NCBI GenBank assembly: GCA_965232235.1
Contig: OZ246960.1
Coordinates: 871,058-935,057 of the forward strand
DNA from: Candidatus Poribacteria bacterium
GTDB lineage: Bacteria; Poribacteria; WGA-4E; JAJDTR01
Length of the DNA stretch: 64,000 nt
Direction: 5' to 3'
Made by a program: the position numbers and the translations under genes. Within the stretch, counting starts at the first letter, position 1. Every line of letters starts with the position of its first letter. The notes beneath the pieces are model-generated. The model searched no databases and had not been told where the DNA came from. It was given only the letters and a program-made list of their open reading frames with translations. Positions 1,590-17,875 of the stretch are shown here, piece by piece.

Positions 1590-1928
1590 ACCGTTCTCCG
1601 GACGGTAGAATAGCAGCGTCCGCTTGTTAATCACCGTTTCCCTAACGAGTTGGCGTTTCATAGACACATCCTAGAAATTGTTAAGACACAAGCACTGTTG
1701 TGAGAACTGCCAATGCCCCTCTTGCACAGAAAATGAACATTGGCGTTCATTTGTTAGATACGTAAGGGCGAAACGCTGGTGCGTCTCAGGAACACATCTG
1801 GGGACAATTCCAATGAAATCCGTGTGATAGCGCCAAGTGTGGGCAGCTTATGGACGTGGCACACAACTTGCTGACACTCTGCTAACACAGTCAATCCGAT
1901 TGCCATCGATTCTAAGGGAGCCAATCCA
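1590..1928 (+). repeat. duplicated gene-end + leader segment, copy A (also at 6130..6412 and 9880..10324)
   Basis: Long near-identical stretches shared with the other two copies, including ...ttctccggacggtag and ...gcactgttgNgagaactgccaaYgcccct... Confidence 0.7.
1857..1871 (+). promoter_or_regulatory. sigma-54 (RpoN) -24/-12 promoter match TGGCAC-acaac-TTGC, 58 bp upstream of the BNR1 ATG
   Basis: Exact GG-N10-GC spacing in TGGCACACAACTTGC; conserved in leader copies B and C. Confidence 0.55.
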
Positions 1929-3035
1929 ATGATATGGACTCGACGTTTAATGCGAACCGCTTTCATTTTCTTGGTAATGATGACTATATTGGCGAACGAA
2001 TCCGATGCGAATATCCGCGCCGAGTGGACTCAACTCACTGTCGCGCAGCCCATGGGGCGCGTGAACGCGCTTGAAACCGATGGACGCCGACTCTACGCCG
2101 GGACATGGAATGGTGTGTACATCTCCCTTGATGACGGTTACACCTGGGGTTCAAGCGAAGTCAAACACACGTGTACTGTAATTGCAACCCATCAAAATAC
2201 GGTGTATGCGGGAACATATGGCAACGGCGTAGTTCGCTCCGATGATCGTGGCGAGACATGGATGTCCAAAAACGACGGATTGCCCCTACCCGACGAACTC
2301 GACCAATACGGACGCGTTGAGCAAATCCTCGTCACCAGCTCCGGCACAGTCATCACTGTGACGAGCCTGGGTACGTATACATCGACCGACCGAGGTGAGA
2401 CATGGCACGGCGTAATAGACGACTGGATAGTGCACCAGGACGCGTGGGGAGCGCTCGACTGGCCAATAACCCGTAGTACGTTGTCGATGACTGAGTTCGA
2501 TGGTTATCTCTGGGGCGAAGCGGATGGCAGCATGTTCCGTTCCCCTGACAACGGCCACACGTGGGAATCTATTCCTCGTTTCGGACACCACCCGGCGCAC
2601 AACTGGGCGGTGTTCAATGATAAATTATATGTCGCCGGAGGAAAAGGCTTTGCACGATGGAACGAAGAAGGACTCCCTTTCCCTTGGGAGTATCGCATTA
2701 AAGGGTTTCCAAGCGATTCCGATGGGTATTTAGACTACGCGCCCAGTTTAACAAGCTTGGCTGTAAGCGGCGGCCGTCTATTTGCCGGACTTTACGATCA
2801 CGGCGTCTACATGTTTGATACACGCTCGGACACATGGATTCCCGCAGGTCTGCAGTGGCTTACAGTTAGTGCGCTCGTATCTCATCAATCCGAGCTGTAC
2901 GCAGCAACCTATGCGCTCGACGAAAGGCAGGCAGGCACCGTCCACACGCCCCAAGGGATCTACCGCGCTACAATTCTGGCCGTGCAGCCCTACGGCAAAG
3001 CCGCCACCACTTGGGGCGCCCTTAAAACAAAATGA
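1929..3035 (+). CDS. secreted BNR/Asp-box repeat beta-propeller protein, paralog 1 (368 aa)
   Basis: Signal peptide; Asp-box motifs SLDDGYTW, SDDRGETW, STDRGETW, SPDNGHTW; C-terminal tail PYGKAATTWGALKTK. Confidence 0.75.
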   Translation: MIWTRRLMRTAFIFLVMMTILANESDANIRAEWTQLTVAQPMGRVNALETDGRRLYAGTWNGVYISLDDGYTWGSSEVKHTCTVIATHQNTVYAGTYGNGVVRSDDRGETWMSKNDGLPLPDELDQYGRVEQILVTSSGTVITVTSLGTYTSTDRGETWHGVIDDWIVHQDAWGALDWPITRSTLSMTEFDGYLWGEADGSMFRSPDNGHTWESIPRFGHHPAHNWAVFNDKLYVAGGKGFARWNEEGLPFPWEYRIKGFPSDSDGYLDYAPSLTSLAVSGGRLFAGLYDHGVYMFDTRSDTWIPAGLQWLTVSALVSHQSELYAATYALDERQAGTVHTPQGIYRATILAVQPYGKAATTWGALKTK

Positions 3036-3817
3036 AATACCTAATCTTCATACTGAGTTTGTTAAGCCTTATTGTTGCCACTGTTCTGCTCGTGATCGCC
3101 ATCAGCTCTTGCACGCCGGACGTCCATGCCGAAATTCGGGCACTCTGGGTTCCACTCGTTGGCACGGAGTCCCTGAAGCACGTGAACGCACTTGAAACCG
3201 ACGAATTCCGTCTCTACGCCGGGACGTCTGCCGGACTCTACATCTCCCGAGATGACGGTGCCACCTGGAGTTTAACTGACCTTACACACGCTTGTCAGGC
3301 AATCGCAATCCGTCAAAATGCAGTGTATGCAGGAACACAAATGCGCGGGGTATTTCGCTCCGATAATCGCGGCAACACATGGAAGACCAAAAATAACGGA
3401 TTCCACGAAGTGCGTTGGGGCGGCGAAGATCGCGGATTTCCATTCATTCATCAGATCCTCTTCTCTAATACCGGCACAGTCATCACAGTGATGTACCACC
3501 AGGGCACGTATACATCGACCGACCGCGGCGAGACATGGGACAGCGTCATAGACGACTGGAGACTAGGCGACTGGCAAATAGGCGGTGATATCTGGTCGAT
3601 GACCGAGTTTGACGGATATCTCTGGAGCGCCATTTCGGTGCACACCACGCTCCGTTCCCCTGACAGCGGTCAGACGTGGGAACATATTGACCACTTCGAA
3701 CACACCCGGGTAATCGGCGTAGAGGTAGCCGTCCCGCTGTGTTTTGAACACATCCGGGGGTATTTCGTCCGGTACAGCGAAGCAGTGATGAACTATAGCC
3801 AGCCAGCAAACGAGTGA
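3032..3817 (+). CDS. BNR/Asp-box paralog 2, C-terminally truncated or diverged (261 aa, lacks the conserved tail)
   Basis: ATGA start/stop overlap with paralog 1; Asp-boxes SRDDGATW, SDNRGNTW, STDRGETW, SPDSGQTW; similarity to paralog 1 is lost after about aa 225, suggesting a frameshift. Confidence 0.55.
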   Translation: MKYLIFILSLLSLIVATVLLVIAISSCTPDVHAEIRALWVPLVGTESLKHVNALETDEFRLYAGTSAGLYISRDDGATWSLTDLTHACQAIAIRQNAVYAGTQMRGVFRSDNRGNTWKTKNNGFHEVRWGGEDRGFPFIHQILFSNTGTVITVMYHQGTYTSTDRGETWDSVIDDWRLGDWQIGGDIWSMTEFDGYLWSAISVHTTLRSPDSGQTWEHIDHFEHTRVIGVEVAVPLCFEHIRGYFVRYSEAVMNYSQPANE

Positions 3818-3851
3818 TACATATTTCACTTTCATGGTGCCACCCTCTTAT

Positions 3852-3890
3852 GTTTTTGTTCGTAGGTTGGGTTGAACACCGTGAAACCCA
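3852..3890 (+). repeat. REP-like element gtaggttgggttgaac..gtgaaacccaac
   Basis: GTAG followed by inverted repeat ttgggtt/aacccaa; the same family sits at 19680, 22770 and 27838. Confidence 0.6.
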
Positions 3891-3891
3891 A

Positions 3892-4836
3892 CTATCTAGC
3901 TTCCTGAACGCGGCGTTTTAAGCTGCCCCATGTAGTCGCCAGCTTGTTCTCGGGCTCCACTGCGAGCGAACCGCCGGGGAAGAGGTGATATCCGTTGCCG
4001 GACGAATCTCGATACATGGCGGCTCCGGGACCTTCATCAAAGTGCCACAACGCTATAGTCTGTACATCCAACCGGAGTCGACGTCTCGGACGAATTTCCG
4101 CCTCTCCGTAACGGAATCCCTTGGAAACCCGAACTTCGTCGATGTAGCCCTTCATGGATCCAAATCTGTATCCCCATCCCCAACCATTTCGTTTGGTGCC
4201 GCCAATTAGCAGCGGCGCATCGGTGCGGTTCATCGCGCTGCTAAAGGTGAAACCTCCCCAGTCGCCGTCATAATACCATATAACTTTCATACGATTTCCT
4301 TTCACAGAAATCTGATAGGCAATATGCACCCAACGCTTCAACGGGAAATCGTGGGGCGGAATCTCAGGTCCAAAAATCCCCGTACTCATGCCACTCTGTA
4401 CTCCATATTCGATATATGTAGTACCTTCTGGATCCCCCCGTCTAATACCAGAGCCTAAGTATCTTCCCGTAACAGAAACGAAATAGCTGCTGGGCTTGGC
4501 AAAGATATTCCACCGTCCCTCGTGAGAATTCGCAGCGAAATTCCAATCTTTCGGTTTATCGGTCAAATAAATCCACGCTTCAACCGTGATGCCCTTGCCT
4601 TCCACGTCGTCGAAGACACCGGGGTAATCGGCGTAGACATACCCGTCCGGGCGCAGTGTCAACACATCGCGGGGAACCTTCTCGGGTAAAGCGACTACTT
4701 TTGGCACGACAAATAACAATGCAATCAAGGTCAGGGCGCAAAATGAATATACTGTCCTGAATCTCATGATTCCCGCCGATTGAGTGTTTGCTAGTGTAAT
4801 CCCCTGCATTTCGATTCCTCCCATTTTATGTTTCAT
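3892..4836 (-). CDS. secreted LamG/concanavalin-A-like lectin-fold protein
   Basis: Hydrophobic signal from the internal Met (MRFRTVYSFCALTLIALLFV), so the likely start is 4767; WVHIAYQ..YIDEVRVS is laminin-G-like; C-terminus KLATTWGSLKRR shares the TWGxLK tail. Confidence 0.5.
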   Translation of the reverse strand: MKHKMGGIEMQGITLANTQSAGIMRFRTVYSFCALTLIALLFVVPKVVALPEKVPRDVLTLRPDGYVYADYPGVFDDVEGKGITVEAWIYLTDKPKDWNFAANSHEGRWNIFAKPSSYFVSVTGRYLGSGIRRGDPEGTTYIEYGVQSGMSTGIFGPEIPPHDFPLKRWVHIAYQISVKGNRMKVIWYYDGDWGGFTFSSAMNRTDAPLLIGGTKRNGWGWGYRFGSMKGYIDEVRVSKGFRYGEAEIRPRRRLRLDVQTIALWHFDEGPGAAMYRDSSGNGYHLFPGGSLAVEPENKLATTWGSLKRRVQEAR

Positions 4837-4903
4837 GTAGGTGTGCCGAGTGATCTTCCTTCATAAGTATTTTCCGCTAGAAGCCGATTTCCCTAACTAA
4901 TTC

Positions 4904-4918
4904 GCAAAAATCTTGCCA
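4904..4918 (-). promoter_or_regulatory. sigma-54 -24/-12 promoter match (minus strand TGGCAA-gattt-TTGC) upstream of the LamG gene
   Basis: Reverse complement of 4904..4918 is TGGCAAGATTTTTGC with GG-N10-GC spacing, about 70 bp upstream of ATG 4836. Confidence 0.45.
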
Positions 4919-4977
4919 ATCCCTAACCGTACAGGCGCACAAGCCAAAAAAAATCCGGGACGTGCAATGACTTGAAT

Positions 4978-5625
4978 TTATGAGCCAGCCGGGACAGATG
5001 CAAATCTGTGGCATGAGAGTAGGGCTAAATTGCGATACAACCCATAGCCATCAAGATAGAGATGATGTTCAAGAGGTACGGGACGCTCAAGTTCCTGAAC
5101 CACATCAATCTCGATCTCGCGGACGCTGCGCATCCAATCCCCGAACTGGTTGAGATTGGGTATGGTCGCGCTTAAACACGCAAATTTTATATGCTGTGGG
5201 GCGAAAATTATGCTCTCTTCCCATACCGTCCCTCGTTCAACATCGTTGATGTAATGAATCTCGTCGAATATTGCGTATTCTACATCCGCCAAGCGTTCTA
5301 TATCGTCGAAAATCGTGTTTCGGAAGATTTCCGTTGTCATCAACAGAATTTGGGCATAAGGATTGAGGACAACATCTCCCGTTAAAATACCGACCCGATC
5401 GCCATATCGCTCAAAGAAATCCCGATATTTTTGGTTGCTCAACGCTTTGATTGGCGCCGTGTAAATCACACGCCGATCGCCCTGAATGCATTTATCAACC
5501 GCATACTCCGCTACCACCGTTTTTCCCGCCCCGCTTGGAGCGGCGACAATCACAGAACGCTCATGATCTATTGCCCGGATAGCCTCTTCTTGGAACCGAT
5601 CTAGCTGTAAACCCCTGTAGAACAT
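4978..5625 (-). pseudogene. N-terminal fragment of a DEAD/DEAH-box (Ski2/Lhr-like) helicase
   Basis: Walker A APSGAGKT and DEIH box, but only about 200 aa; the reading frame ends at a 21-bp direct repeat (5022..5042) that recurs at 6052..6072. Confidence 0.55.
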
Positions 5626-5721
5626 TCAAATCTCCCAAACCCAAGTAACAGCCGCATGATTTTAACTGTTTCCACCCGTTTTGTCAAATGTGAATATCCG
5701 GGTGTAGGGGTCGCATCGCTT

Positions 5722-5800
5722 GGACCCATTGGGATCAACTTAAGGGATTTTGTCTAGTATCAGTGGTGTTCTCCGACGCAAAACCCTTAACTTAGTCCCA
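5722..5800. repeat. long imperfect palindrome (cccattgggatcaacttaaggg ... cccttaacttagtcccatagg)
   Basis: Inverted repeat seen directly; a half-copy recurs at 6030..6052. Confidence 0.45.
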
Positions 5801-5849
5801 TAGGATGGGGAGGAAATCTCTATCATCCCCCACACGGTAGGTGCGATCA

Positions 5850-5883
5850 AGCGAATGGATAATGAGTGCGATAGAGATCCCTT
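5850..5883 (-). repeat. copy of the R1 short repeat family (ctatcgcNctcattatccattcgcttgatc)
   Basis: Reverse complement matches the family consensus. Confidence 0.6.
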
Positions 5884-6129
5884 TCCAACCGCACCGGCAC
5901 CTACGGAAACCAGCGCCATGAGTCATCTCTTGTGGCGCACCCATCAGTGAACGAACTGGTATTCCCTCGCTCACGTCTACATGGAGATTAACAGTTCAAG
6001 ACATTGAAGCCGCGTGACTTGCACCCTAAAACGCTTAACTTGATCCCTATGGGGCTAAATTGCGATACAACCTATCCTGACGCTGAGCAACGTCAGACTA
6101 TCCGACGCATTCTTAATCGAATTGTGGTC

Positions 6130-6412
6130 CAAGATCGAACAGAAATGGTGCCCTACCAGCTTTGTTGAACGCGGGCACTGTTGGGAGAACTGCCAACGCC
6201 CCTCTTGTACAGAAATTGGACAACGATGTTCATATTTTAGGTACGAAAGCACGAAACGCCATTGCGTCTTAATGACACATCGGAGCACAATACCGATGAA
6301 ATTCGTGGGTTAGTGCCCGAATCGGGGCAACTTATGGGCGTGGCACACCACTTGCTCACGCTCTACTTGCGCAGTCAATCCGATAGCCATCAGTTCTAAG
6401 GGAGGCAATCCA
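6130..6412 (+). repeat. duplicated leader segment, copy B
   Basis: Shares the last ~280 bp of copy A, including the sigma-54 site and ribosome-binding-site region. Confidence 0.7.
6341..6355 (+). promoter_or_regulatory. sigma-54 promoter match TGGCAC-accac-TTGC, 58 bp upstream of ATG 6413
   Basis: Same position as in copy A. Confidence 0.55.
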
Positions 6413-7509
6413 ATGATATGGGCTCAAATTTTCACGCAAACCGCTTTCATTTTCTTAGTAATGATGACTATCCTAGCGAACGAATCGGATGCGAATATCC
6501 GCACACTTTGGCTTTCACTCACTGGCACGGAGGATATGGGAGAGATAAACACACTTGAATCCGATGGAAGCCGACTCTACGCCGGGACACGGGACGGACT
6601 CTACATCTCGGACGATAACGGTTACACCTGGCGTTTAACCGAGTTTAAACTGCCTGTTAAGGTAATGGCAACCAGCCCGCAATCAATATACGTAGGATCG
6701 AATGTTTATGACGGCCTCATTCAATCCGATGATCGTGGAAAGACATGGGAGCCCCTAAACAACGGGCTTGGATATATCGATGAAACCAACCGTTTAGACG
6801 ACGGTCCCGTTGGGTACGGAGTGTTTAAATACTTTGTGCACACCCCTTACGGCACCATAATCAGTGTAATGGCCTGCTGCACTGATGACTCGGCCGACGG
6901 CAGCGACACCTGGCGTGAGGCGCCATCCGACTGGCGAGTCGACGATACCGACTGGATATTAGGCTACGCTGTAAAGTTGTTGTACGGCATGGATCACTAT
7001 CTGGTGGCCGGCTGGGTTAGCGGTATACTACGCTCCCGTGAGGGACAACCCGGCGGCCGCCTCATCTCTTCCTTCGGTGGGAACGTCGACCAGATCGCTT
7101 GGCCGACCGCCTGGGCCGTGCTCAATAATAGAGTGTATGTAACCTGAGCACCATACTTGTCAAACGCCCCGTTTTTCGCGCTATACGACCCGGAGCGCAC
7201 TTGGCAGTATCTCAACGTAGGGCTTCCGGAGAGCGACGGTGTATGGCTCCGATACAATATAAACACCTTCGCTGCTAACCGCGGCCGCCTCTTCGCCGGA
7301 CTTAACCGCCCCGCGGCGTATACATGTTTGATGAGCGCTCCAAAACGTGGATTCCGGCAGGCCTAGACGGGTTGACCGTTAGTTCGCTCAAATCCCATCA
7401 AACCGATCTGTACGCAGCAACCAATGAAGGAATCTACCGCGCTTCAATCCCGACCGTGCAGCCCTACGGCAAAGCCGCCATCATCTGGGGCACCATCAAA
7501 CAAAAATGA
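6413..7509 (+). pseudogene. BNR/Asp-box paralog 3, disrupted by at least two frameshifts
   Basis: Homology to the intact paralogs continues across three frames (6413..7147, 7157..7366, 7324..7509); ends with the tail PYGKAAIIWGTIKQK. Confidence 0.6.
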
Positions 7510-8576
7510 AATACACAACCCTCATCGTCACTCTATTAGCCCTGCTCCTCGTCATCTCCCTCGCCCGCGCCGAGTGGGAACTCCTTCTTGCCACGCATAA
7601 CATGAGCGGCGTGACGGCACTTGAAACCGACGGCAGCCGCCTCTTCGCCGGGGGATCGTTGGAAGGACTGTATACCTCGGACGATAATGGTGACACCTGG
7701 TGTACAACCGCCCTGACGCACGGATACGTTCAGGCAATTGCTATCAGCGGCGATGCGGTATATGCATTCGTGAATGAGCACGGCATGTTTCGCTCCGACG
7801 ATTACGGGAAGACGTGGAACCCGATAAACGACGGGCTCCGCACAATTCATGACCATACCCTCGACATCCGGATCCCGTACATTAACCAAATACTCGTTAC
7901 CCGTTCCGATATGGTCATCGCTGCGGGCGGCTTTGATGGGACGTACATATCCCGCGACCGAGGAGAGACATGGCACTTCGCGGCCGATTGGTCGTTTCCC
8001 TGCCCCAAAGGGCCCGAGGTGCCCGACTTTACATTCAGCGATTCCATCGATTCGATGATCGAATACGACGGTTATTTGTGGGCAGCCGCGTGGTTCCACG
8101 TATACCGTTCCCCCGACGACGGCTCCACATGGGAATGCGTGCCAGTATTGCCAAGGCTCGGCGAAGCCTACGACTGGGCAGTGCTCAACAATCAATTATA
8201 CGTCGCCGGAGGACACGGATTTGTACGATGGAACGAAGGCGAACTCGCTTGGGACGATCTCAACAACGGGCTGCCGGATTCCCCTGATTTGAGAAGCCTT
8301 GCCGTTAACCGCGGCCGCATCTTTGCCGCAGTTAGGGCGTCATCTATGATCAGACCAGGGGCTTATAGGACTGTCGCACACGGCGTGTACGAGTTCGATG
8401 AGCAATCCGAAACCTGGTTTCCCGCAGGCCTAGAGGGAGTGGCGGTATACTTGGTCGCATCCGATCAATCCTACCTCTATGCCTCGACGTACAAGGGCAT
8501 TTACCGCGCTTCAATCCCCGTCGTGCAACCCTACGGCAAAGCCGCCGCCACGTGGGGCGCCATCAAACGACCATGA
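7506..8576 (+). CDS. secreted BNR/Asp-box beta-propeller protein, paralog 4 (356 aa)
   Basis: Signal peptide; SDDNGDTW, SDDYGKTW, SRDRGETW, SPDDGSTW; tail PYGKAAATWGAIKRP; ATGA overlap with the upstream gene. Confidence 0.75.
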   Translation: MKYTTLIVTLLALLLVISLARAEWELLLATHNMSGVTALETDGSRLFAGGSLEGLYTSDDNGDTWCTTALTHGYVQAIAISGDAVYAFVNEHGMFRSDDYGKTWNPINDGLRTIHDHTLDIRIPYINQILVTRSDMVIAAGGFDGTYISRDRGETWHFAADWSFPCPKGPEVPDFTFSDSIDSMIEYDGYLWAAAWFHVYRSPDDGSTWECVPVLPRLGEAYDWAVLNNQLYVAGGHGFVRWNEGELAWDDLNNGLPDSPDLRSLAVNRGRIFAAVRASSMIRPGAYRTVAHGVYEFDEQSETWFPAGLEGVAVYLVASDQSYLYASTYKGIYRASIPVVQPYGKAAATWGAIKRP

Positions 8577-8584
8577 AAATGTAT

Positions 8585-8618
8585 CTGGTGCTTCCTCTCG
8601 ATTGAAAGGAAGCACCAG
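8585..8618. terminator. bidirectional hairpin terminator between convergent genes
   Basis: Perfect 12-bp stem ctggtgcttcct / aggaagcaccag with a 10-nt loop; a U-run follows on the minus-strand side. Confidence 0.45.
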
Positions 8619-8629
8619 ATGAGACTCCC

Positions 8630-9145
8630 TTAAGCAACGGTTATCTCGTGAGTGTTTCCAGACGAACCCGGATTAGGTGCCGGCTTGGGCGGGCTGCCTT
8701 GCGTTTGCGCATTTTGGAAACCCACGCTAGTGTAGGCCTCGATCTTCACCTTGTCGCCCGGTTCGAGAGGATCATCCAACTCGAACGTATAGACACGATC
8801 ATTCTCCCAAGAGGAATTGCCTTTGAGGTCTTCCATGTCGTCTTCGTCAAACGTGTCGCCCGAGTCGACCCTTATCACGCCCTCGTTACGATTTTGTCGG
8901 GGTGGCGCCGTCTGATCGGAAAACACATCGGGAGGATAGCCTCCGCCTCTATCGATGTTAACCTCATGCTTATACTCGATATCGAAAGTCTGGCGGCCGT
9001 CGTCCTTGTTTTCGATATCAAATCGGTGTTTGCTCCGGGTTGTGATCTCATCCCTGGCGGCGTTCACCGATACATTAATGTCAAAGCACTCCAAAGACGC
9101 CGTGGTTTGGTGGCTGTTGTATTGCTTGAGTGGACCGCGTACCAT
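8630..9145 (-). CDS. hypothetical protein (171 aa)
   Basis: ORF track; no motif recognised. Confidence 0.3.
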   Translation of the reverse strand: MVRGPLKQYNSHQTTASLECFDINVSVNAARDEITTRSKHRFDIENKDDGRQTFDIEYKHEVNIDRGGGYPPDVFSDQTAPPRQNRNEGVIRVDSGDTFDEDDMEDLKGNSSWENDRVYTFELDDPLEPGDKVKIEAYTSVGFQNAQTQGSPPKPAPNPGSSGNTHEITVA

Positions 9146-9204
9146 AGTTAAATCTCCTTAATTTCACCCTCCTACGAGTGTCACCGCTTATACTGAGGTA
9201 TAAA

Positions 9205-9732
9205 ATGAAAAGACTAAGCCTGCTCATATTGCTCATCGCCGCCTGCGGCGCCGAAGACACGATGCGCGAGCCCGACATTGAGCCAGTCCTTCCGGTCGTC
9301 GACATCGGGGCCTACGACATCAACTCCCAGTATTTCGTATATCAACTCGAGTCTGATCACACGGTAGACCGACCCATATACGTCTGGGTAGTTAAGACCT
9401 ATAGAGGGCATTATTCGAACGACAGGTTTCGCCGCTTTGAAATCTGCGACGTCGGCGGGCCTGCAAGGATAATAGCGGGTCTGCAAGAGTGCATCGGAAT
9501 TGCGGAAAGAACGATTGGCACCAGGAAAGAAACGGATCATCAATTCTCTAAGTCCAATGTCCCCTTTCAAGAGGGCGAGCAGGGTATTGTCACCTCTGTC
9601 GTCATAGAAATTTCGCAGTTGCCGCCGCAGGCCGAATGGTATATAGAGAGAGGCCACCCATTCACCGTAGGCGTCTCCACCCTGATGTTCACGACGCATC
9701 AAAACATTATTCGTCGACAATGGCAAACGTGA
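9205..9732 (+). CDS. hypothetical lipoprotein
   Basis: MKRLSLLILLIAAC lipobox from the internal Met at 9205. Confidence 0.4.
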   Translation: MKRLSLLILLIAACGAEDTMREPDIEPVLPVVDIGAYDINSQYFVYQLESDHTVDRPIYVWVVKTYRGHYSNDRFRRFEICDVGGPARIIAGLQECIGIAERTIGTRKETDHQFSKSNVPFQEGEQGIVTSVVIEISQLPPQAEWYIERGHPFTVGVSTLMFTTHQNIIRRQWQT

Positions 9733-9809
9733 AGGCATAAAAAAGGCCGCTGTCGCCTGGGGAGCTATAAAACAACCACGACTAAAGTAGACATAGAACA
9801 AGGTGTATC

Positions 9810-9908
9810 ATGAAAATCTATCTGCTCGTACTGCTCGTGCTCCTCGGCTGCCGGGAGACGGAGAATCGACCTGTTGTCGAACAGCCCGAAGCGTTCTCCG
9901 GACGGTAG
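9810..9908 (+). pseudogene. remnant lipoprotein signal peptide (32 aa, MKIYLLVLLVLLGC...FSGR*) inside leader copy C
   Basis: Translation by eye; ends with the same ..FSGR stop context as 1231..1608. Confidence 0.4.
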
Positions 9909-10324
9909 AATCGCAGCGTCCGCTTGTTAATCACCGTTTCCCTCACGAGTTGGCGTTTCATAGACACATCCTTGAAATTGTTAAGACAGAGGCACTGTTG
10001 CGAGAACTGCCAATGCCCCTATTGCACAAAAAATGAACATTGGCGTTCACTTGTTAGATACGAATGCACGAACCGCTAAGACACAGCAGGAGGTGAGTTC
10101 GATGCAATTCGTGGGGTAGTGCTAATACAGGGTAACTTATGGACTAGGACAGTCCTGGGACGTGATAGATAGTGGCGCACAACTTGCATACATTCCAATA
10201 ACGCAATCAATTCGAGAACCATCAACTCTACAAGAGACGGCAAATTTTGTGCACTCAACTCGGATCGACTTTCACGAAGTGCTGCCGCTATGAGAACTAA
10301 CACTGCCGAAAAGGTGAAAACCCT
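9880..10324 (+). repeat. duplicated leader segment, copy C
   Basis: First ~200 bp nearly identical to copy A. Confidence 0.7.
10173..10187 (+). promoter_or_regulatory. sigma-54-like promoter match TGGCGC-acaac-TTGC
   Basis: GG-N10-GC spacing retained; 138 bp upstream of ATG 10325. Confidence 0.4.
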
Positions 10325-10972
10325 ATGAACGACTCCAACTTGTTCGGACGAATCGTTAAGGCGGCGGTGGTCGTCGCCCTATACGCATTCTTTTTCATCG
10401 GTGCTGTCGTCCTGATAATCGGCTGCGGCGAGGAACGTGAGGATATCCTGCAGCCGGCCTTGCCAACGATTAATCTGAGAGCACAAGACATCGATCCGAG
10501 CTTTCGTCAGTTTGCATATGCCATCACCGCCAGCGAGCCGCTCCCCTATTCTATAACACTGCGCGTAGACACCACTGCCGACGTATTCGCAAACGGGCAC
10601 TTCCAAATTGTGAGAAATAAGGAAATCCTCACTTTCAAGCGTGGTTCACAGACGGTCTACGGATTCTACAACAGATATTTCCTGCAAGCGTTCCTGTATC
10701 AAAACAGCTTTTTTTTCGATAAGGAGTTCGGGACGCTGGAATGCGTTCGCGGCGGCGGCGCCGGTTCCGTCCCAGACCCCCCGCGTGGGGCTCACCCCGT
10801 GATTCAGATAAAGGTAATGATCTCACATCCACTGCCCAACGACGACCATTGCGTCAGCCTTGCCGGCGGTGCCTACACTATTGAGAGTTCGAAACTCACT
10901 TTAAGGGCGCCTGACGATCTCATCGAGACGCTGTTTCCTGACCCGGACACCCGCCCATGGGAAGTCCGATAA
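10325..10972 (+). CDS. hypothetical membrane-anchored/lipoprotein (215 aa)
   Basis: N-terminal TM helix ending in IIGCG. Confidence 0.4.
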   Translation: MNDSNLFGRIVKAAVVVALYAFFFIGAVVLIIGCGEEREDILQPALPTINLRAQDIDPSFRQFAYAITASEPLPYSITLRVDTTADVFANGHFQIVRNKEILTFKRGSQTVYGFYNRYFLQAFLYQNSFFFDKEFGTLECVRGGGAGSVPDPPRGAHPVIQIKVMISHPLPNDDHCVSLAGGAYTIESSKLTLRAPDDLIETLFPDPDTRPWEVR

Positions 10973-11013
10973 TACCCCTTATCGGACTTCCTTAAACCCG
11001 AGGTAAAGCACCA

Positions 11014-11230
11014 TGAAATATACCTGCTGCTACTCGTTACCCTCTTCGCCTGCAGCGAAACCGATAATACACTTATGCCGGTAGCATGGTTCCATACGGG
11101 GAAGGAGTCTGGACCTGGTCTGGTAGACCCGACTGGCCCGATTACGACACCTAGATATTCGAGTCTTTCTGTCTGGTGTCGGATATCCCCATGCCGGCCA
11201 CAACCTACATTTTGGTAGAAGACCGTTTCG
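11014..11230 (+). pseudogene. frameshifted lipoprotein remnant
   Basis: The +1 frame after codon 4 reads LLLLVTLFACSETDNT.., a lipobox. Confidence 0.35.
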
Positions 11231-11419
11231 TCCACATGGCCGAAGGCGAGCTCCGATCCCAGGAAGTCGTTTTCTGGAGTATATGTCCGCCCCGGACCAC
11301 TAACGACTCGCCCCCTAGGTTCGAGGCGCAAATAAAGCCGATGCACGAACGATCCCGACACTTGCCGTCTAACCCTTGAAGTTAGATACTGTACAGCAAT
11401 TACTATCCATCAGAACACC

Positions 11420-12223
11420 GTGTATGCCGGAACATGGTACGACGGCGTATTTCGCTCCGACAGTCATGGCAACACATGGCAACCCATAAACAACGGAATC
11501 CGCTTAATCGATCGGGGTAGCGAAGAACTCGGGCCTCCAATCATTGAGCAAATACTCGTGACGAGTTCCGGAACCGTCATCGCTGTGGGGTACCACAGCG
11601 GTACGCATACATCGACCGACCGAGGCAAGACATGGCACGACGTAACACTAGAGTGGAAAGTGCGCCGAGACGCATGGGGACTGCCCGACCGGATAATAGG
11701 CGATGGTATCTGGTCGATGGCGGAGTTCGACGGCTATCTTTGGGCAGCCTATTCGAGATACCAAGTATTCCATTCCCGTGACAACGGCGTAACGTGGGAA
11801 CATACCAGCGGATTCGGGCATGGCCGGGTTGCCGACTGGGCGGTGCTTAATGATCGATTATACGTGGCCGGGGACGAAGGCTTTGGGCGATGGAACGAAG
11901 CCGAACTCGCGTGGGACGATCTCAGCCGAGGGCTTCCGCCAGCTGGCAGGTGGCCCGACCGTCCAGACCTCTCAATACAAACCCTGGTTGTTCATCGCGG
12001 ACGTATCTTCGCCGGGCTTCGGAACAACGGCGTGTGGACGTTTGATGAGCGCTCCGAAACGTGGATTCCCGCTGGTCTCGACGGGTTGACCGTTACCTCG
12101 CTCGTATCCCATCGATCCGATCTGTACGCAGCAACCAAAGAGGGCATCTACCGCGCTTCAATCCCGACCGTGCAACCCTCCGGTAAAGCCCTCACGACAT
12201 GGGGCACCGTTAAAACAAAATGA
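11420..12223 (+). CDS. BNR/Asp-box paralog 5, 5'-truncated
   Basis: Homology to paralog 1 starts about 11390 (..TAITIHQNTVYAGTWYDG..), equivalent to residue ~90 of the full-length proteins; no signal peptide; Asp-boxes and the tail PSGKALTTWGTVKTK are present. Confidence 0.55.
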   Translation: MYAGTWYDGVFRSDSHGNTWQPINNGIRLIDRGSEELGPPIIEQILVTSSGTVIAVGYHSGTHTSTDRGKTWHDVTLEWKVRRDAWGLPDRIIGDGIWSMAEFDGYLWAAYSRYQVFHSRDNGVTWEHTSGFGHGRVADWAVLNDRLYVAGDEGFGRWNEAELAWDDLSRGLPPAGRWPDRPDLSIQTLVVHRGRIFAGLRNNGVWTFDERSETWIPAGLDGLTVTSLVSHRSDLYAATKEGIYRASIPTVQPSGKALTTWGTVKTK

Positions 12224-12235
12224 CGGAGACCGCTC

Positions 12236-13309
12236 ATGAATAACAAACTCAGCTTAACGTTTATCCTAACCCCACTCCTGCTCGCGATCTGGCTCTCCAA
12301 TTTCGTCCAAGATGCCCGCGCGGAGTGGGAACATATCCCCGGCACCGAGGTCATCGGGAGCGTCGAACTGCTTGAAAGCGACGGTGTCCGTCTTTACGCC
12401 ATAGGTGACGCCGGCTTTTACCTCTCCTTCGATGACGGTTACACCTGGCGTCGCCGCAACATTGGTCGCGGCATCGAGGACTTTTATATCACCGCCATTG
12501 GAAGCGGGGATGGTGCCGTCTATGTCGGTACGGCAGACCACGGCGTGATCCGCTCCGACGACGGCGGCAACACCTGGGAGCACATTAACGAAGGGCTCCA
12601 CATCTTCGACAGCCCGAAATGGGGGGCCCACTACGGAAAGGTTGAACAAATGCTTGTCACAGGTTCCGGCATGGTCATCAACGTAGGATACCACCGTGGC
12701 ACGCACATATCTAACAACCGAGGCGAGAAATGGCGCGACGTAATGATGGAATGGAAGGCATCCCAAGGACCGGGACAGCACGATTGGGCTTTCGGCGACG
12801 GCATCTGGTCGATGACCGAGTTCGACGGCTATCTCTGGGCCGTCTATTCGGACGCCCCGGTATTCCGGTCCCCCGACCAGGGCGCCACTTGGGAGCTTCT
12901 TCCAATCCGAAGCTACGGCAGCATCCGCGACTTTGGGCGCGTACACGACTGGGCGGAGCTTGGGGATAAGCTGTACATCGCCGGAATCGGCGGCTTCGGG
13001 CGATGGAACGAAGCCGAACTTGCTTGGGACGATTTCAGCCAAGGACTCCCGCCGGAACGGATAGCAAGCCTAGCGGTTAATCGCGGCCGTATCTTCGCCG
13101 GAACAAGGAACAACGGCGTGTGGGTGTTTGATGGCCGATCCGAAAGGTGGATTCCCACAGGTCTGGACGGGTTGACCGTTACTTCGCTCGAACCCCATCA
13201 ATCCGATCTGTACGCGGCAACCAAAGAGGGCATCTACCGTGCTTCAATCTCGACCGTGCAACCCTACGGCAAAGCTGCCGCCACATGGGGCGCCATAAAA
13301 CAACGATGA
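12236..13309 (+). CDS. secreted BNR/Asp-box beta-propeller protein, paralog 6 (357 aa)
   Basis: Signal peptide; SFDDGYTW, SDDGGNTW, SPDQGATW; tail KAAATWGAIKQR. Confidence 0.75.
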   Translation: MNNKLSLTFILTPLLLAIWLSNFVQDARAEWEHIPGTEVIGSVELLESDGVRLYAIGDAGFYLSFDDGYTWRRRNIGRGIEDFYITAIGSGDGAVYVGTADHGVIRSDDGGNTWEHINEGLHIFDSPKWGAHYGKVEQMLVTGSGMVINVGYHRGTHISNNRGEKWRDVMMEWKASQGPGQHDWAFGDGIWSMTEFDGYLWAVYSDAPVFRSPDQGATWELLPIRSYGSIRDFGRVHDWAELGDKLYIAGIGGFGRWNEAELAWDDFSQGLPPERIASLAVNRGRIFAGTRNNGVWVFDGRSERWIPTGLDGLTVTSLEPHQSDLYAATKEGIYRASISTVQPYGKAAATWGAIKQR

Positions 13310-14427
13310 ATTACCTAATCTTCGTACTTGCACTATTAAGCTTTCTTGTTGCCTCCGCTCTCCTCGTGCTCTCCCTCGACAGTTGCTCGCCGAACGCAGA
13401 TGCCGCTTTCCAGGCCGACTGGATTCACCTCTCCGGCACTGAGGCGCTGGAGGCGGAGCTTCTCGAAACCGATGGCAACCGCCTCTACGCCGCCACTTGG
13501 GAAGGAGTGTACATCTCCTTGGATAATGGTTACACCTGGCGTTATGCCGAGATTGCCCACGGTCTTGAACAATTTTATATTATCGCAATTGGAATAGGGC
13601 GCAATGCCGTGTATGCAGGGACACAACACCACGGCGTATATCGCTCCGACAGCCACGGCAACACCTGGAAGCCCAAAAGAAACGGTATACACATATTCGA
13701 TTTAGATGAACCCGATCTAGAACCCCATTACGCAGCCGTTAAGCAAATACTCGTCACCCGTTCCGGCACAGTCATTGCCGTGGGGTACCATGCGGGCACC
13801 TATATATCCACCAACCGAGGCGAAGCATGGCATGGCACCGACGAGTGGCGGTACACCAGAGAACATCTGGGCTTGGACGACGTGCCAATAGGCTATGATA
13901 TCTGGTCGATGACCGAGTTCGACGGCTATTGGTGGGCAGTTACTTCGAGCGGTTCGTACAAATTGTGCCGTTCCTCTGACGACGGCGAAACGTGGGAAGG
14001 TCTTCCCTACTGGGTAGCCGGCGGAAGTATCGCCGAGTACCCTCATGTAGTCGATTGGATAGTGCTCAATGATCGGTTATACGTCGCCGGAGCTGGAGGC
14101 CTCGGGCGATGGAACGAAGCCGAACTTGCTTGGGACGATTTCAGCCAAGGACTCCCGCCGGAACGGATAGCAAGCCTAGCGGTTAATCGCGGCCGTATCT
14201 TCGCCGGAACAAGGAACAACGGCGTGTGGGTGTTTGATGAGCTATCCGAAACGTGGATTCCCGCTGGTCTCGACGGGTTGAACATTTACGACCTCATATC
14301 CCATCAATCCGACCTGTACGCCGCCACGGACGAGGGCATCTACCGCGCTTCAATCCCGACCGTGCAACCCTACGGCAAAGCCGCCGCAACTTGGGGCGCC
14401 CTGAAACACGAAGCTCTCGCCAAATAG
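13306..14427 (+). CDS. secreted BNR/Asp-box beta-propeller protein, paralog 7 (373 aa)
   Basis: True start is MNYLIFVLALLSF at 13306 (ATGA overlap); the upstream part of ORF 13147.. is an antisense artefact; 133 bp at 14103..14236 are identical to 13001..13133. Confidence 0.75.
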   Translation: MNYLIFVLALLSFLVASALLVLSLDSCSPNADAAFQADWIHLSGTEALEAELLETDGNRLYAATWEGVYISLDNGYTWRYAEIAHGLEQFYIIAIGIGRNAVYAGTQHHGVYRSDSHGNTWKPKRNGIHIFDLDEPDLEPHYAAVKQILVTRSGTVIAVGYHAGTYISTNRGEAWHGTDEWRYTREHLGLDDVPIGYDIWSMTEFDGYWWAVTSSGSYKLCRSSDDGETWEGLPYWVAGGSIAEYPHVVDWIVLNDRLYVAGAGGLGRWNEAELAWDDFSQGLPPERIASLAVNRGRIFAGTRNNGVWVFDELSETWIPAGLDGLNIYDLISHQSDLYAATDEGIYRASIPTVQPYGKAAATWGALKHEALAK

Positions 14428-14585: not shown

Positions 14586-14949
14586 TTTGCCCCGCTTTGG
14601 AGAGACTTGATTGACGCTATTAACGCACCGCAGATATATAGAACTGGTATTTCTACATAGAGTCCAGGTTTTCGATCCGGAGGATCGGTATGTCAATAGT
14701 ATACGATATGTCCGAATTTCCGCGTTCCAGCGGAGCGCAATGTGTGGCATACACTTATCCTGACGGGATGATTATCTCATCAAGCAATACTCCTTTTTTC
14801 GCCCTTTGACTGGCTTTGAATTAGTGTTACTTGTGAGAATCCAATAAGGGACATGACGCGCCCAAGCACGTGTGGTATAATTGAATTGTAGGACAAAAGG
14901 GCTGCCTGACGGAATCGGGGCCTTGATTAGGAGCGACACGAGGAAAGCA

Positions 14950-15558
14950 ATGTCATCTGCTGCCGTGCAATCTCATCTGGCACCGGAAGAGTATCTCGCT
15001 CTAGAACGCAAAGCAACGATCAAGAGCGAATACCGAGAGGGCCGCACGCACCCGATGTCAGGATCAAACCGGGCGCATAATCTCGTCAGCGGAAATATCA
15101 GCTGTGGACTCCATCTCCAGTTGAAGCAGCGTTCCTGCGAGGTCTATGCTTGTGACATGCGCCTAAAGGTTAGCGCGGCGGGACTATATACCTACCCCGA
15201 TATCCTTGTTGTCTGTGATGAACCACGATTTGAGGACGCCAATGTTGATACACTCTTAAATCCCACCGCCCTTTTTGAAGTCCTCTCACCGCGCACCGAG
15301 GCGTATGACCGAGGGGCGAAATTCGGGTACTATCGACAACTCGACTCCATGCAAGAATACACCCTCGTCTCACAGGATTTTATGCGCGTCGAACACTACC
15401 TCCGACATAACGAGCAGTGGATCCTGACAGAATTCGGCAGCCTCAATGATGTTGTTCGTCTGACTTCAATAGACTGCGAACTCCCACTGCGTGAAATTTA
15501 TGCGAAAGTAGATTTCCCTCCGAACGAGTCACCCCGCCAATCCCAACAGACCGTTTGA
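14950..15558 (+). CDS. Uma2-family (DUF820) PD-(D/E)xK endonuclease-like protein
   Basis: Start at the internal Met; the central and C-terminal layout and length are typical of Uma2. Confidence 0.5.
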   Translation: MSSAAVQSHLAPEEYLALERKATIKSEYREGRTHPMSGSNRAHNLVSGNISCGLHLQLKQRSCEVYACDMRLKVSAAGLYTYPDILVVCDEPRFEDANVDTLLNPTALFEVLSPRTEAYDRGAKFGYYRQLDSMQEYTLVSQDFMRVEHYLRHNEQWILTEFGSLNDVVRLTSIDCELPLREIYAKVDFPPNESPRQSQQTV

Positions 15559-15650: not shown

Positions 15651-16757
15651 TTACCTACCACTCCAGACGGCTCTTAACAAATCCCCCGTGTAAATCGCGC
15701 TGGGCAACACCTCGTACTCCGCCCAGCACCCGGGGCACTTGTTGACCCATTCCCGCTGCTTCCCTATCCTGCCATTCGCCCACAAATCGGCGAATTTCTC
15801 CTCCTTCAGATTCCCGACGCTTGTCGTGTTGAACTGGCACGTCGGCACACGCCCATCCGGCAGCAGCCGCAGGTGCGAATTAAGTGCGACGCATTTCGGA
15901 TTGGGCACGCCCTCACCTTGAAGCAACCGATTCCGGATGCCCTGCAGGTAGTAGCGTTTCGCGAGCCGGTCAAGCAGCGGATAATTCGTGAGGTCCTTCT
16001 CAATCTCGTCGAACAGCGTTTGAAGATGCTCCTCCGTGAATTCGCCAAACGTCGTAAACTGACCAATCTGCGACGGAGCAACCTCCAGCTCCTCCTCCAA
16101 GTTATAGGTCGCGCTTAGGTCGTAAGCCATCACGACATTGTTCCGAACACCCAACGGCTCTAGGAACTCCCGCAAGCGCTTATAGTGTTCAACCCCCTCC
16201 GCATCAACTATCGACTGATTCACCGACAGACTCATCCGCAGCTCCTTCTGACGCGGCGCCAGAGCATTGAGCGTCCTCACGATGAAATCCCACGCCTTGT
16301 CATGGCCCCGCACATGGTTATGCTTCTCATCCATACCGTCAACGGAAACGAGCATACTCAACGGAACATCCCGCCGCCGCTTCTCGCAGAACTGCACAAT
16401 CCGGTCTGTCAGGAAACCGTTCGTCGTGACATGAATCATTAGCGGTTTAAGTTTGTCTTGGACGAGATGAGCGATGTCCAATAGGTCACGCCGAACAAAC
16501 GGCTCACCACCCGTCAACCGCACGGCGTCCATCCGCGGCAGTTTATTGAAGATGTTTCCAATCTCGTCAATGCTCAAATCGTTCGGCGAAGGCTTGCGCC
16601 ACGAGTCGCACATGATGCACCTCGCATTGCACGAGAACGTCACGATATACGTCAAACACCGGGGTAGTGTCACGGCGCGGCGGCGGGCGCGCCCAACCGT
16701 GTGAAGAAACGAGAGCAGGCGATTCTTGATCTCGAAATGAGACGGGTGTCCGCTCAT
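15651..16757 (-). CDS. radical SAM protein
   Basis: CNARCIMC (Cx3Cx2C) near the N-terminus; GGEP motif. Confidence 0.75.
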   Translation of the reverse strand: MSGHPSHFEIKNRLLSFLHTVGRARRRAVTLPRCLTYIVTFSCNARCIMCDSWRKPSPNDLSIDEIGNIFNKLPRMDAVRLTGGEPFVRRDLLDIAHLVQDKLKPLMIHVTTNGFLTDRIVQFCEKRRRDVPLSMLVSVDGMDEKHNHVRGHDKAWDFIVRTLNALAPRQKELRMSLSVNQSIVDAEGVEHYKRLREFLEPLGVRNNVVMAYDLSATYNLEEELEVAPSQIGQFTTFGEFTEEHLQTLFDEIEKDLTNYPLLDRLAKRYYLQGIRNRLLQGEGVPNPKCVALNSHLRLLPDGRVPTCQFNTTSVGNLKEEKFADLWANGRIGKQREWVNKCPGCWAEYEVLPSAIYTGDLLRAVWSGR

Positions 16758-17875
16758 GTGGCGAGCTCCTTCTTACGTGTGGCGGGGGGCAATGGTGAGG
16801 CGATAGGTTTATATCCCGGCAAATACTGATTGATAATATTTAGAGCGGCGGTGTTCCCATACACCTGCCGACGATTGATGCGAGCGCGAAATGCCTCGCA
16901 CCGCTCCATAAAATAGCGCGTATGTACCGGCGAAATCTGCTCCATTCCCACGCTCATACCGGCTCCCGAACGTTGGACAAAATGCCCGTTGATGCGTTGC
17001 TCGTGGTTGCGGTGTTCCGGCATGGCGAGCACCGGCTTTTCAAGATAGAGAGCTTCCCCGATGAGTTGGTTTCCAGCCGTGCTTATCAATGCGCGGCTCG
17101 TCGCTAGGTCTTCCACGAACCGGTGCATGTCGATCGGCAAGAATCGCAATCGCCCGGAAGACGACTGCTCTCCCAGTCCGTAAATGCGCACCTCGCACCC
17201 GCAGGCTTCAAGCGCGCCAAAAACTTCGCGCGAACCGAATCGCCGCAGATACACCACTAGATGATCGCCGCGCTCCGGTGCGGCTTCCAGAACTTCGGAC
17301 CTCAGCAATACGCCAATCTGGGTGACATCATGCGCTCTAGGTTTAAGCGGCGGAAAGTAGAACGACGAGACAACCGTTTGCAATTGACCACGGCAATAGC
17401 CGCGCACGATCTGTGCCATGAAGAACGCATGCCATCTTAGCTCCATGGGCAGCGAACTCAGGTCCGACGTAACTAGCACGTGTTGGTGATCCAGACTGAT
17501 GTAAGGAACGCCTGCGTGCCGTATGGCTCTGGGCAGCGCGGGCTCGAAATCGGTTATCGCCAAGTCGGGTGACTCTCGCTCAATATCCGACCGCAGCCGC
17601 CGAGAAAGCGCGGCGTACTTCGCGGCATAGGACAACCCCTTTATTCCCGTTCTTACGGGATTCAGCCGATGGCTGCGAGTGTAATGAAACGACAGCCCCG
17701 GAATGTGTCTAACGGTAACATCACTCTCTTGATACACCGGTTGTAACAGGTCGTAGGCTTGCCCCGGCGCGTAAATTACAATCCGATGATTCTTCCGCAA
17801 CTCCTCGACAATGGCGCGCACACGTGTGGCATGACCGCGCCCCTCACCGGACAAGCTATAGAATATAGTTGCCAT
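16754..17875 (-). CDS. glycosyltransferase (GT1/GT28, MurG/MGT-like)
   Basis: N-terminal YSLSGEGRGHATR Gly-rich loop; 373 aa GT-B-like. Confidence 0.55.
   Translation of the reverse strand: MATIFYSLSGEGRGHATRVRAIVEELRKNHRIVIYAPGQAYDLLQPVYQESDVTVRHIPGLSFHYTRSHRLNPVRTGIKGLSYAAKYAALSRRLRSDIERESPDLAITDFEPALPRAIRHAGVPYISLDHQHVLVTSDLSSLPMELRWHAFFMAQIVRGYCRGQLQTVVSSFYFPPLKPRAHDVTQIGVLLRSEVLEAAPERGDHLVVYLRRFGSREVFGALEACGCEVRIYGLGEQSSSGRLRFLPIDMHRFVEDLATSRALISTAGNQLIGEALYLEKPVLAMPEHRNHEQRINGHFVQRSGAGMSVGMEQISPVHTRYFMERCEAFRARINRRQVYGNTAALNIINQYLPGYKPIASPLPPATRKKELAT

Follow-up and report, generated by a model that had tools for sequence, protein, structure and literature searches.

What kind of locus is formed by the BNR/Asp-box genes at positions 1929-14427 of the Poribacteria sequence analysed here? 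The window, that is, the whole stretch under study, comprises 64,000 nucleotides (positions 1-64,000) of contig OZ246960.1 (871,058-935,057) of a Candidatus Poribacteria bacterium, and all coordinates refer to it. Poribacteria, which have yet to be cultured, belong to the dominant symbionts of marine sponges, and their interaction with the host is largely obscure. A preliminary description of these genes had proposed a tandem array with ongoing duplication, gene conversion and decay, and a contingency-type locus for a secreted beta-propeller of sialidase-like, Ycf48-like or GH74-like fold. Based on the comparisons described below, it is reasonably likely that the genes form three short operons of a Poribacteria-only family of exported propellers of about 360 amino acids (aa), carried as fast-recombining, strain-variable cassettes and preceded by sigma-54-type promoters. 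The earlier observation is essentially right once corrected, and its interpretation is right on conversion, decay and variability.

Operon layout and promoters

Open reading frame (ORF) listing, translation, repeat finding and Pfam scans identified seven paralogs, P1 to P7, all on the + strand. Seven copies in 12.5 kb are present as described, but they are not contiguous, being grouped in three blocks (P1-P2, P3-P4 and P5-P6-P7) with other genes between them. The spacer from P2 to P3 (3892-6412) holds a LamG gene on the - strand, a helicase-fragment ORF of 215 aa and a promoter region, and that from P4 to P5 (8577-11380) a terminator hairpin, an anonymous ORF and three lipoprotein sequences, of which two are small genes and one is a pseudogene. 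The translational coupling by ATGA stop/start overlaps, which had been thought to run throughout, was found only at 3032-3035 (P1/P2), 7506-7509 (P3/P4) and 13306-13309 (P6/P7); P5 and P6 are separated by a gap of 12 nt without overlap.

Copies from all strains compared were clustered at >=88% nucleotide identity into about 18 gene types, which are designated by letters. P1 (type B, 1929-3035) is intact and encodes an exported seven-bladed Asp-box propeller of 368 aa with the C-terminal tail GKAATTWGALKTK. P4 (type C, 7506-8576, 356 aa) is intact with a signal peptide of the signal peptidase I type, P6 (type F, 12236-13309, 357 aa) is intact and was the paralog chosen for structure modelling, and P7 (type G, 13306-14427, 373 aa) is intact with a lipobox-like signal. 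P2 (type E, 3032-3817) is a lipobox-type paralog of 261 aa truncated after blade 4, P3 (type A, 6413-7509) is a pseudogene in the window strain, and P5 (type N, ~11381/11420-12223) is 5'-truncated, beginning in blade 2 with neither a signal peptide nor an ATG.

An enhancer-like element of ~285 nt is repeated before each block (repeat families D13 and D19; alignment). Copy 1 (1587-1871, +) carries the sigma-54-type -24/-12 sequence TGGCACACAACTTGC at 1857-1871 and precedes P1-P2; copy 2 (6071-6355, +) carries TGGCACACCACTTGC at 6341-6355 and precedes P3-P4; and copy 3 (9887-10187, +) carries TGGCGCACAACTTGC at 10173-10187 and precedes the lipoprotein gene and P5-P6-P7. Both promoter elements, their exact 5-nt spacing and a position upstream of a gene were observed, as in sigma-54 promoters. 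Promoter copy 1 is followed by a conserved 5' untranslated region (UTR) with the ribosome-binding site AAGGGAG, and the duplicated module of ~330 nt consists of the enhancer-like region, a near-consensus sigma-54 promoter, the 5' UTR and a leader peptide.

Sites of the form TGGC(A/G)C-N5-TTGC precede all three blocks in the window (1857, 6341 and 10173), where a looser pattern, TGGC-N7-TTGC, was observed nine times against 2.4 expected. In 743 kb of Poribacteria loci TGGC[AG]C-N5-TTGC occurs at 43 sites versus 2-6 in shuffled sequences; 42 of the 43 are oriented with the genes, usually 57-77 nt ahead of the first gene of the array. The ~170 nt upstream of the promoter are better conserved among species than coding sequence and include an invariant palindrome, TGAAC-N6-GTTCA, and a ACTGCCAA box at -151. 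A structured RNA was considered for this element and rejected: Rfam gave no matches in the window, and RNAalifold on 12 copies gave a covariation of +0.26 with one compensatory pair. The conservation therefore lies at the level of the DNA sequence.

A further -24/-12 element, TGGCAAGATTTTTGC at 4918-4904 (-), is found before the divergent LamG gene. Its conserved form, TGGCA(A/G)GATTTTTGC, stands ~80-90 nt upstream of the first LamG gene, also in L003, L009, L012, L013, L016, L019, L020 and L035 (locus handles of the comparison set), so that the divergent LamG cluster looks sigma-54-dependent as well. Downstream of P4, a hairpin with a 17-bp stem (8583-8620), which has no strand of its own, is likely a bidirectional terminator closing the P3-P4 operon. 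The literature searches returned nothing relevant on sigma-54 in Poribacteria.

Distribution and fold of the propeller family and its C-terminal tail

When P6 was searched against proteins, 268 homologs were obtained at E<=1e-3. Wherever the source name included an organism, this was Candidatus Poribacteria, and some multi-megabase contigs carry several of the homologs together. Scanning one genome for each GTDB species yielded 32 loci, all in metagenome-assembled genomes of Poribacteria, including closed chromosomes. Within these loci the density reaches 11 copies per 21 kb, and the adjacent loci L005 and L012, and L009 and L011, sum to ~17-20 copies in 37-41 kb. An exhaustive profile search retrieved 97,094 representative proteins at E<=1e-3, which represent the Asp-box superfamily; the propeller family is a small, full-length subset of it of ~340-390 aa, which in these sequence searches was found only in Candidatus Poribacteria.

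All paralogs match the BNR/Asp-box and Sortilin-Vps10 models of Pfam weakly, near or below threshold. They belong to the Asp-box superfamily, with 2-4 canonical SxDxGxTW boxes per paralog and scores of 26-31 bits to PF02012 (cut-off 27). The AlphaFold2 (AF2) model of P6, based on an alignment of 40 sequences, has seven four-stranded blades, with a mean predicted local distance difference test (pLDDT) score of 87.6 and a predicted template modelling (pTM) score of 0.84. In it blade 7 is closed by the conserved AEW(E) strand with which the mature protein begins (residues 30-33), and the tail with which it ends (342-357) is disordered. Among PDB structures, Foldseek ranked WD40 propellers, the BT4663 sensor propeller and Ycf48 highest (TM-scores of 0.6-0.7) and GH74 lower. 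Signal peptides of at least three kinds were recognized, namely an A-x-A type, a lipobox type and a leader associated with the promoter module. The proteins are thus predicted to be exported seven-bladed, Ycf48-like propellers and neither GH33 sialidases nor GH74 enzymes, so that of the folds put forward in the preliminary description the secreted, Ycf48-like beta-propeller agrees with the model.

The resemblance to Ycf48/HCF136, the photosystem II assembly factor (2xbg, 5oj3, 5ojr), is that of a single seven-bladed propeller of ~330 aa with a signal or lipobox, and this protein is among the best fold matches of the P6 model (TM-score 0.58-0.71). Equivalence is not indicated, the best score to PRK13684 being 22.2 bits against a cut-off of 326, and the likeness is at the level of the fold only. 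Ycf48 differs in being single-copy, not arrayed and devoid of the C-terminal tail; it is a protein of phototrophs, which Poribacteria are not.

Could the paralogs nevertheless be a battery of secreted sialidase-like, GH74-like or F510_1955-like enzymes, each covering a different substrate among sponge or algal glycans? BNR/Asp-box motifs are present, NCBI labels one member a "sialidase family protein", partial matches exist to NF045728 (F510_1955 family glycosylhydrolase), to GH74 xyloglucanases and to the structure 3b7f, and GH33 enzymes are reported to be enriched in sponge symbionts (PMC8163846). We regard this explanation as unlikely. The GH33 sialidases share the BNR repeats, but have six blades, an Arg triad and a FRIP motif. 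The P6 model has seven blades; BNR_2 (PF13088) matches P2 only, scoring 14.5 bits where the gathering cut-off is 31.4; and no conserved FRIP motif was found, RIP being absent in five of the six copies scanned and located in a variable loop in P4. A sialidase-like fold is thus not borne out.

The same applies to GH74. Members of GH74, like sortilin/Vps10 (PMC2716378), have SxDxGxTW Asp-boxes in successive blades as the paralogs do, the best sequence match in the PDB is the GH74 protein 2cn3 (E=2e-17), and Sortilin-Vps10 is the best Pfam match. However, GH74 enzymes form their catalytic cleft from two tandem seven-bladed propellers (about 730 aa), whereas the paralogs are single propellers of 356-373 aa and the matches cover only residues ~30-170 of the query, those in the PDB only residues 30-114; sortilin has ten blades. 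The F510_1955 (NF045728) and Reut_B4987 (3b7f) proteins resemble the family in size and in having a single Asp-box propeller, and NF045728 is the best NCBIfam match, with E down to 3.5e-17; the matches are partial, with 50-62 bits against a cut-off of 175, and these proteins have no tail and do not occur in arrays.

More generally, all these matches, including those to solved structures, are restricted to the structural Asp-box blades, and they fall under the curated cut-offs. The invariant residues are Asp-box or blade-core positions, and conservation is lowest in the putative ligand-face loops. Entropy per alignment column was 0.99 bits in the tail; it rose to 1.28 bits in strands and 1.79 bits in loops, and reached 2.2-2.4 bits in those loops that follow the Asp-boxes of blades 2-4. 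The topology of Asp-box propellers is known (Quistgaard & Thirup 2009, PMC2716378), and by this topology the hypervariable loops after the Asp-boxes should lie on the ligand-binding face of the modelled propeller.

The most conserved segment of the propeller family is the C-terminal tail, which is predicted to be disordered. It has ~17 aa, with the consensus V-x-P-x-G-K-[AL]-A-T-T-W-G-[AS]-[LIV]-K followed by 0-12 residues, and was found at the 3' ends of P1, P3, P4, P5, P6 and P7. It also ends the LamG protein (3916-3933, -) and two PD40 propellers (46690-46707 and 48080-48097, +), and so occurs on three unrelated exported folds. In the Poribacteria loci examined, 146 of 660 unique ORFs of >=150 aa end in this tail, and an N-terminal hydrophobic signal was present in 88% of the tail-bearing ORFs versus 37% of the others.

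A short invariant C-terminal element on unrelated exported families of one lineage recalls LPXTG, PEP-CTERM, GlyGly-CTERM and the C-terminal domain (CTD) of the type IX secretion system (T9SS). In contrast to the sortase and exosortase tags, no transmembrane helix or basic cluster follows the motif, and none of the tail-bearing ORFs has a hydrophobic segment after it. Neither whole proteins nor isolated tails matched a sorting-domain model of NCBIfam, even at E<=10, and T9SS CTD, PEP-CTERM, LPXTG and similar domains are accordingly not indicated. Assignment to the T9SS CTD (TIGR04183) was rejected in the absence of a model match; domains of this type have 70-100 aa. T9SS-like C-terminal domains have been described in Poribacteria lacking T9SS genes (Kamke et al. 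2014, PMC3909097), and these probably represent another, longer domain than the tail. The literature searches found no paper describing the tail. Its conservation, disorder and co-occurrence with signal peptides make it a candidate sorting or anchoring tag.

Strain-specific repertoires, gene conversion and decay

The gene types present differ strongly among strains in which the flanks of the array are 94.6-97.9% identical; such a comparison of strains was the check proposed in the preliminary description. To the right of the helicase ORF the window carries A (pseudogene) and C and, further on, N (truncated), F and G, where L001 has A and C and, further on, O (pseudogene), F and G. The corresponding orders are A D B H in L035, A C I B J P in L036, A C I B Q R H in L037, A D B K L M in L038 and A D B K L M J in L039. 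Types B (P1) and E (P2) are on the opposite side of LamG in the window and in L041; the P1 ortholog of L036 and L037 is 92% identical, but is located inside the main array there. At the position of P5 the genes of the window and L001 are 52-77% identical, whereas the adjacent P6 and P7 are 92-100% identical.

Synteny breakpoints coincide with gene ends (7509, 8578 and 3037), and one lies at the junction of signal peptide and mature protein (2008). The last ~200 nt of the genes show 73-80% identity between paralogs versus 44-69% elsewhere (third codon positions, 64-76%), and it is here that exact paralog matches of 27-40 nt are located. From the conserved gene ends and the breakpoints at gene ends we infer that whole genes move as cassettes. 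No copy pair in the window exceeds 73% identity overall and fresh duplications were not evident in the arrays compared; what varies is which of the old, diverged types are present, and the ongoing duplication of the preliminary description is not borne out.

Array genes have also diverged faster than their surroundings. Between the window and L001, the synonymous divergence (dS) of array genes is 0.02-0.09, and that of the flanking radical-SAM and glycosyltransferase genes is 0.004-0.007, which marks the array as a local hot spot of divergence; the source could be recombination with divergent alleles, relaxed or diversifying selection, or both. The ratio of nonsynonymous to synonymous divergence (dN/dS) of orthologs is 0.34-0.78 (1.15 for P6, on few changes) and stays at 0.43-0.60 even at dS 0.2-0.4. 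Judged from these sequences, the array is genuinely fast-evolving and differs in gene content between closely related strains. When window positions 1628-7532 are aligned with L041, the mismatches are strongly clustered: P2, LamG and the 5' portion of P1 show 14-19 per 300 nt and the segment 5200-7500 shows 0-2 per 300 nt, a mosaic typical of recombination between strains.

Decay is evident in P2, P3, P5 and one lipoprotein pseudogene. In P2, whose C-terminus had rightly been described as lost, family homology stops at ~3700-3716 and the gene is fused to an antisense 5' remnant of a second LamG gene (3820-3686). The DNA from 3696 onward is homologous and syntenic to the region downstream of LamG in L035-L039; this, together with the antisense remnant, indicates that P2 was cut by a rearrangement. 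The same ORF of 261 aa is found in the independent scaffold L041 in the same context, P1-P2-LamG-helicase-P3.

P3 was thought to be frameshifted twice. By comparison with the intact 364-aa orthologs of L001 and L041, it has one nonsense mutation, G>T at 7145 (GGA>TGA; TGA at 7145-7147), and one 2-bp insertion, CC at 7309-7310. It is otherwise identical to the L041 gene, and over 5.9 kb of alignment with L041 these are the only frame-breaking differences, with no further frame-breaking indel; the lesions are therefore probably genuine and not sequence errors. P5 lacks blade 1 as well as the signal peptide, as had been noticed; at its position L001 has a different paralog, type O, with an in-frame stop.

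Three of seven copies inactivated, another pseudogene in a sister strain and dN/dS values of 0.34-1.15 might suggest that dispensable genes are duplicated, deleted and lost under little selection and without adaptive diversification. This is quite unlikely, however, as many copies are kept in every Poribacteria genome sampled, scaffold, tail and promoter module are strongly conserved among species, and dN/dS is below 1 at higher divergence.

Gene conversion was identified between P6 and P7. No exact repeat in the first 20 kb is longer than the 138 bp that these two genes share (12996-13133 in P6, 14102-14239 in P7, both +), so that the identical block reported earlier exists but is larger than the 133 bp given. 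Outside this tract the two genes have ~70% nucleotide identity, within the range of 54-73% for all 21 paralog pairs. In a GENECONV-style test of the 21 pairs with 2000 column permutations, the tract comprised 85 consecutive concordant polymorphic sites against a permutation maximum of 28 (p<1/2000), and it was the only significant tract.

L001 and L002 are sister strain assemblies from two samples, 99.995% identical to each other. Their tract has the same 3' boundary as that of the window and starts ~18 nt further 5'; the P6 and P7 counterparts of L001 differ at three of the 138 tract positions, all three private to L001, and immediately outside it there are 34-47 differences between the paralogs per 100-170 nt. 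As the tract is shared with L001 and L002 and the differences are private, the conversion is real, older than the split of these strains and not an assembly artefact. In sequence terms it is recent, yet not demonstrably ongoing in the window strain. Exact tracts between array members in other species (416 nt in L006, 168 nt in L011 and 100 nt in L007) show that conversion is recurrent within the family.

Do these events amount to a contingency system, that is, dedicated high-frequency switching of a surface protein by antigenic variation, with truncated P2 and P5 as silent donor cassettes? Truncated, promoterless copies exist, as do a conversion tract, strong variation from strain to strain and variable loops on a conserved scaffold. 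Even so, the contingency-type locus of the preliminary description is distinctly improbable. Homopolymer or short-repeat tracts are absent from the 5' regions; Tandem Repeats Finder reported only low-copy repeats of 19-59 nt in the window, none in a promoter or 5' coding position of a propeller gene. Inverted repeats and a recombinase or invertase were not found in the array, nor were an invertible segment or a promoterless donor-cassette system. Every intact copy encodes a signal peptide of its own and every block follows a sigma-54-type promoter, with no single expression site; one significant tract in 21 pairs predates the strain split; and the truncated copies differ among strains, as decay products would. 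Nothing at the locus suggests that switching is programmed.

Treponema tpr, Helicobacter hop/hom, Neisseria pilE/pilS and Borrelia vls are recombining multigene families of exported proteins in host-associated bacteria. The array resembles them in its conserved ends, variable interiors, conversion tracts, pseudogenes and strain-specific repertoires. It is unlike them in having no single expression site and no dedicated switching machinery, in encoding a propeller and not a beta-barrel or pilin, in its sigma-54-type operons and in the predominance of whole-gene cassette turnover over segmental conversion. As an example of a fast-recombining multigene family, a kind of system already known, the locus is a modest one.

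That a collapsed or chimeric contig made the identical block and the odd gene fragments can hardly be credited for block and junctions (the two P3 lesions excepted): the contigs of L001 and L002 do both end at window 4951 and exact look-ups of window proteins P1, P2, P4 and P6 gave no database record, but the tract recurs with the same 3' boundary in these two samples, L041 aligns with window 1628-7532 over its full length (97.6%), the truncated P2 of 261 aa included, and shows no stray frameshifts, and the contigs of L035-L039, whose names carry read-depth tags, cross the LamG-helicase-P3 junction. A chimeric join at 4951 or 3696 was likewise ruled out by L035-L042. The break of the short-read contigs at 4951, between the helicase ORF and the LamG promoter, probably reflects strain heterogeneity, since other assemblies span the site.

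In the preferred explanation, three short operons of strain-variable propeller cassettes, whole genes would move within and between arrays by homologous recombination, for which the conserved sequences encoding the tail (3') and the leader (5') would provide the sites. An enhancer-binding protein acting with sigma-54 would switch on the operons. Their products would be non-catalytic ligand-binding modules of the cell envelope or surface whose specificities diversify, and the tail may act as a sorting or anchoring tag.

Several points weigh against this explanation. Neither rpoN nor a gene for an enhancer-binding protein (GAFTGA and RpoN-box motifs) was found in the ~875 kb of Poribacteria loci searched, which are not whole genomes. 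Catalysis is possible, given the NCBI label and the partial F510_1955 matches. The high dN/dS could reflect relaxed constraint instead of diversifying selection, the two lesions in P3 could in principle be assembly errors, and the role of the tail as a tag is read only from its conservation, its disorder and its association with signal peptides.

Neighbouring genes and implications

The exported LamG (Laminin_G_3) protein encoded at 3892-4836 (-) has the same C-terminal tail as the propellers (KLATTWGSLKRR...), and LamG genes flank the arrays divergently in at least eight species. Between the divergent LamG and propeller promoters is the helicase-fragment ORF (4978-5625, -; 215 aa), which corresponds to the N-terminal part of a DEAD-box helicase with the RecA1 domain only and does not belong to the propeller family. 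It lies within an insert of ~1010 bp (5043-6051) bounded by exact 21-bp direct repeats (5022-5042 and 6052-6072); species L003 and L016 have one copy of the repeat and no helicase insert. Its protein is 98.6-100% conserved among related strains and species, and upstream of the ORF, at 5687-5659, is the region's best sigma-70-like promoter, with 11 of 12 matches.

The ORF at 8630-9145 (-) encodes 171 aa, shows neither a signal peptide nor a family match, and is present only in the window and in L001 and L002. It converges on P4, and the hairpin at 8583-8620 is common to both.

Genes of small lipoprotein families (157-215 aa) are interspersed among the propeller genes of several species, in some cases with ATGA coupling between the two; examples beyond the window are at 4505-4978 of L007 and 6188-7273 of L035. 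In the window, the family of the gene at 9205-9732 (+) recurs in the propeller arrays of other species, with tblastn matches in 10 loci. The gene at 10325-10972 (+; 215 aa) is the first after promoter copy 3, and its counterpart in L001 is ATGA-coupled to a propeller gene. A frameshifted lipoprotein remnant is found at 11013-11400 (+; compare L007 4505-4978), of a type that alternates with propeller genes in other species. Positions 11013-11100 were also considered as the remnant of a propeller signal peptide, which was rejected as they belong to this pseudogene. The interleaving and the ATGA coupling suggest that small lipoproteins and propellers are functional partners.

Upstream of the array, two tandem small lipoprotein genes (370-837 and 846-1334, +) encode His-rich N-terminal regions (HEHPLKDHQHEHNLTDHEHDLADHTHD) and have no family match; a 27-nt tandem repeat lies in this region at 894-952. 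Homologs occur near arrays in L001, L011, L015 and L025, and the proteins may bind metal.

Downstream, a Uma2-family gene (14881-15558, +) encodes a putative restriction-endonuclease-like protein (PADLOC PDC-S03) and recurs directly 3' of arrays in several species (L007, L010, L020, L034 and L036). A defence island was considered and rejected, PADLOC being negative for propellers, LamG and lipoproteins and its matches being limited to a generic DEAD-box hit for the helicase fragment and PDC-S03 for Uma2. The radical-SAM/SPASM enzyme and glycosyltransferase encoded at 15651-17875 were considered as a maturase of the W- and K-containing tail; this was rejected because they recur only in loci syntenic with the window and not generally with arrays.

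Elsewhere in the window, two tandem PD40/TolB-like propeller paralogs (45613-46728 and 47006-48118, +) are 53% identical, have signal peptides and end in the array-type tail (...TTWGQIKAVASDR and ...TSWGQIKAVASDR). An HNH endonuclease gene and a P22-like portal protein gene at the far end (56058-57023 and 59783-61504) suggest a prophage or phage remnant.

The literature searches returned nothing relevant on BNR arrays in Poribacteria. For this family the equation of BNR with sialidase in annotation is unjustified, and could feed claims on the use of sialic acid by sponge symbionts. The enhancer module and the shared C-terminal tail are two features worth following: the near-consensus sigma-54 promoter with its palindromic enhancer can be used to hunt for the regulator and to map metatranscriptomes, and the tail, as a shared tag, allows a proteome-wide census and localisation. 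A wider reading, which we put forward tentatively as possible, is that the tail is an undescribed sorting or anchoring signal of Poribacteria marking a large regulon, controlled by sigma-54 and the enhancer, of exported binding proteins of the Asp-box propeller, LamG and PD40 kinds, in which the strain-specific propeller cassettes would be a variable interface with the sponge host or with phage. The propeller family is phylum-specific, multicopy and exported, and few parts of the genome change faster between near-identical strains, a profile that would be expected for molecules facing a host, phage or a variable substrate.

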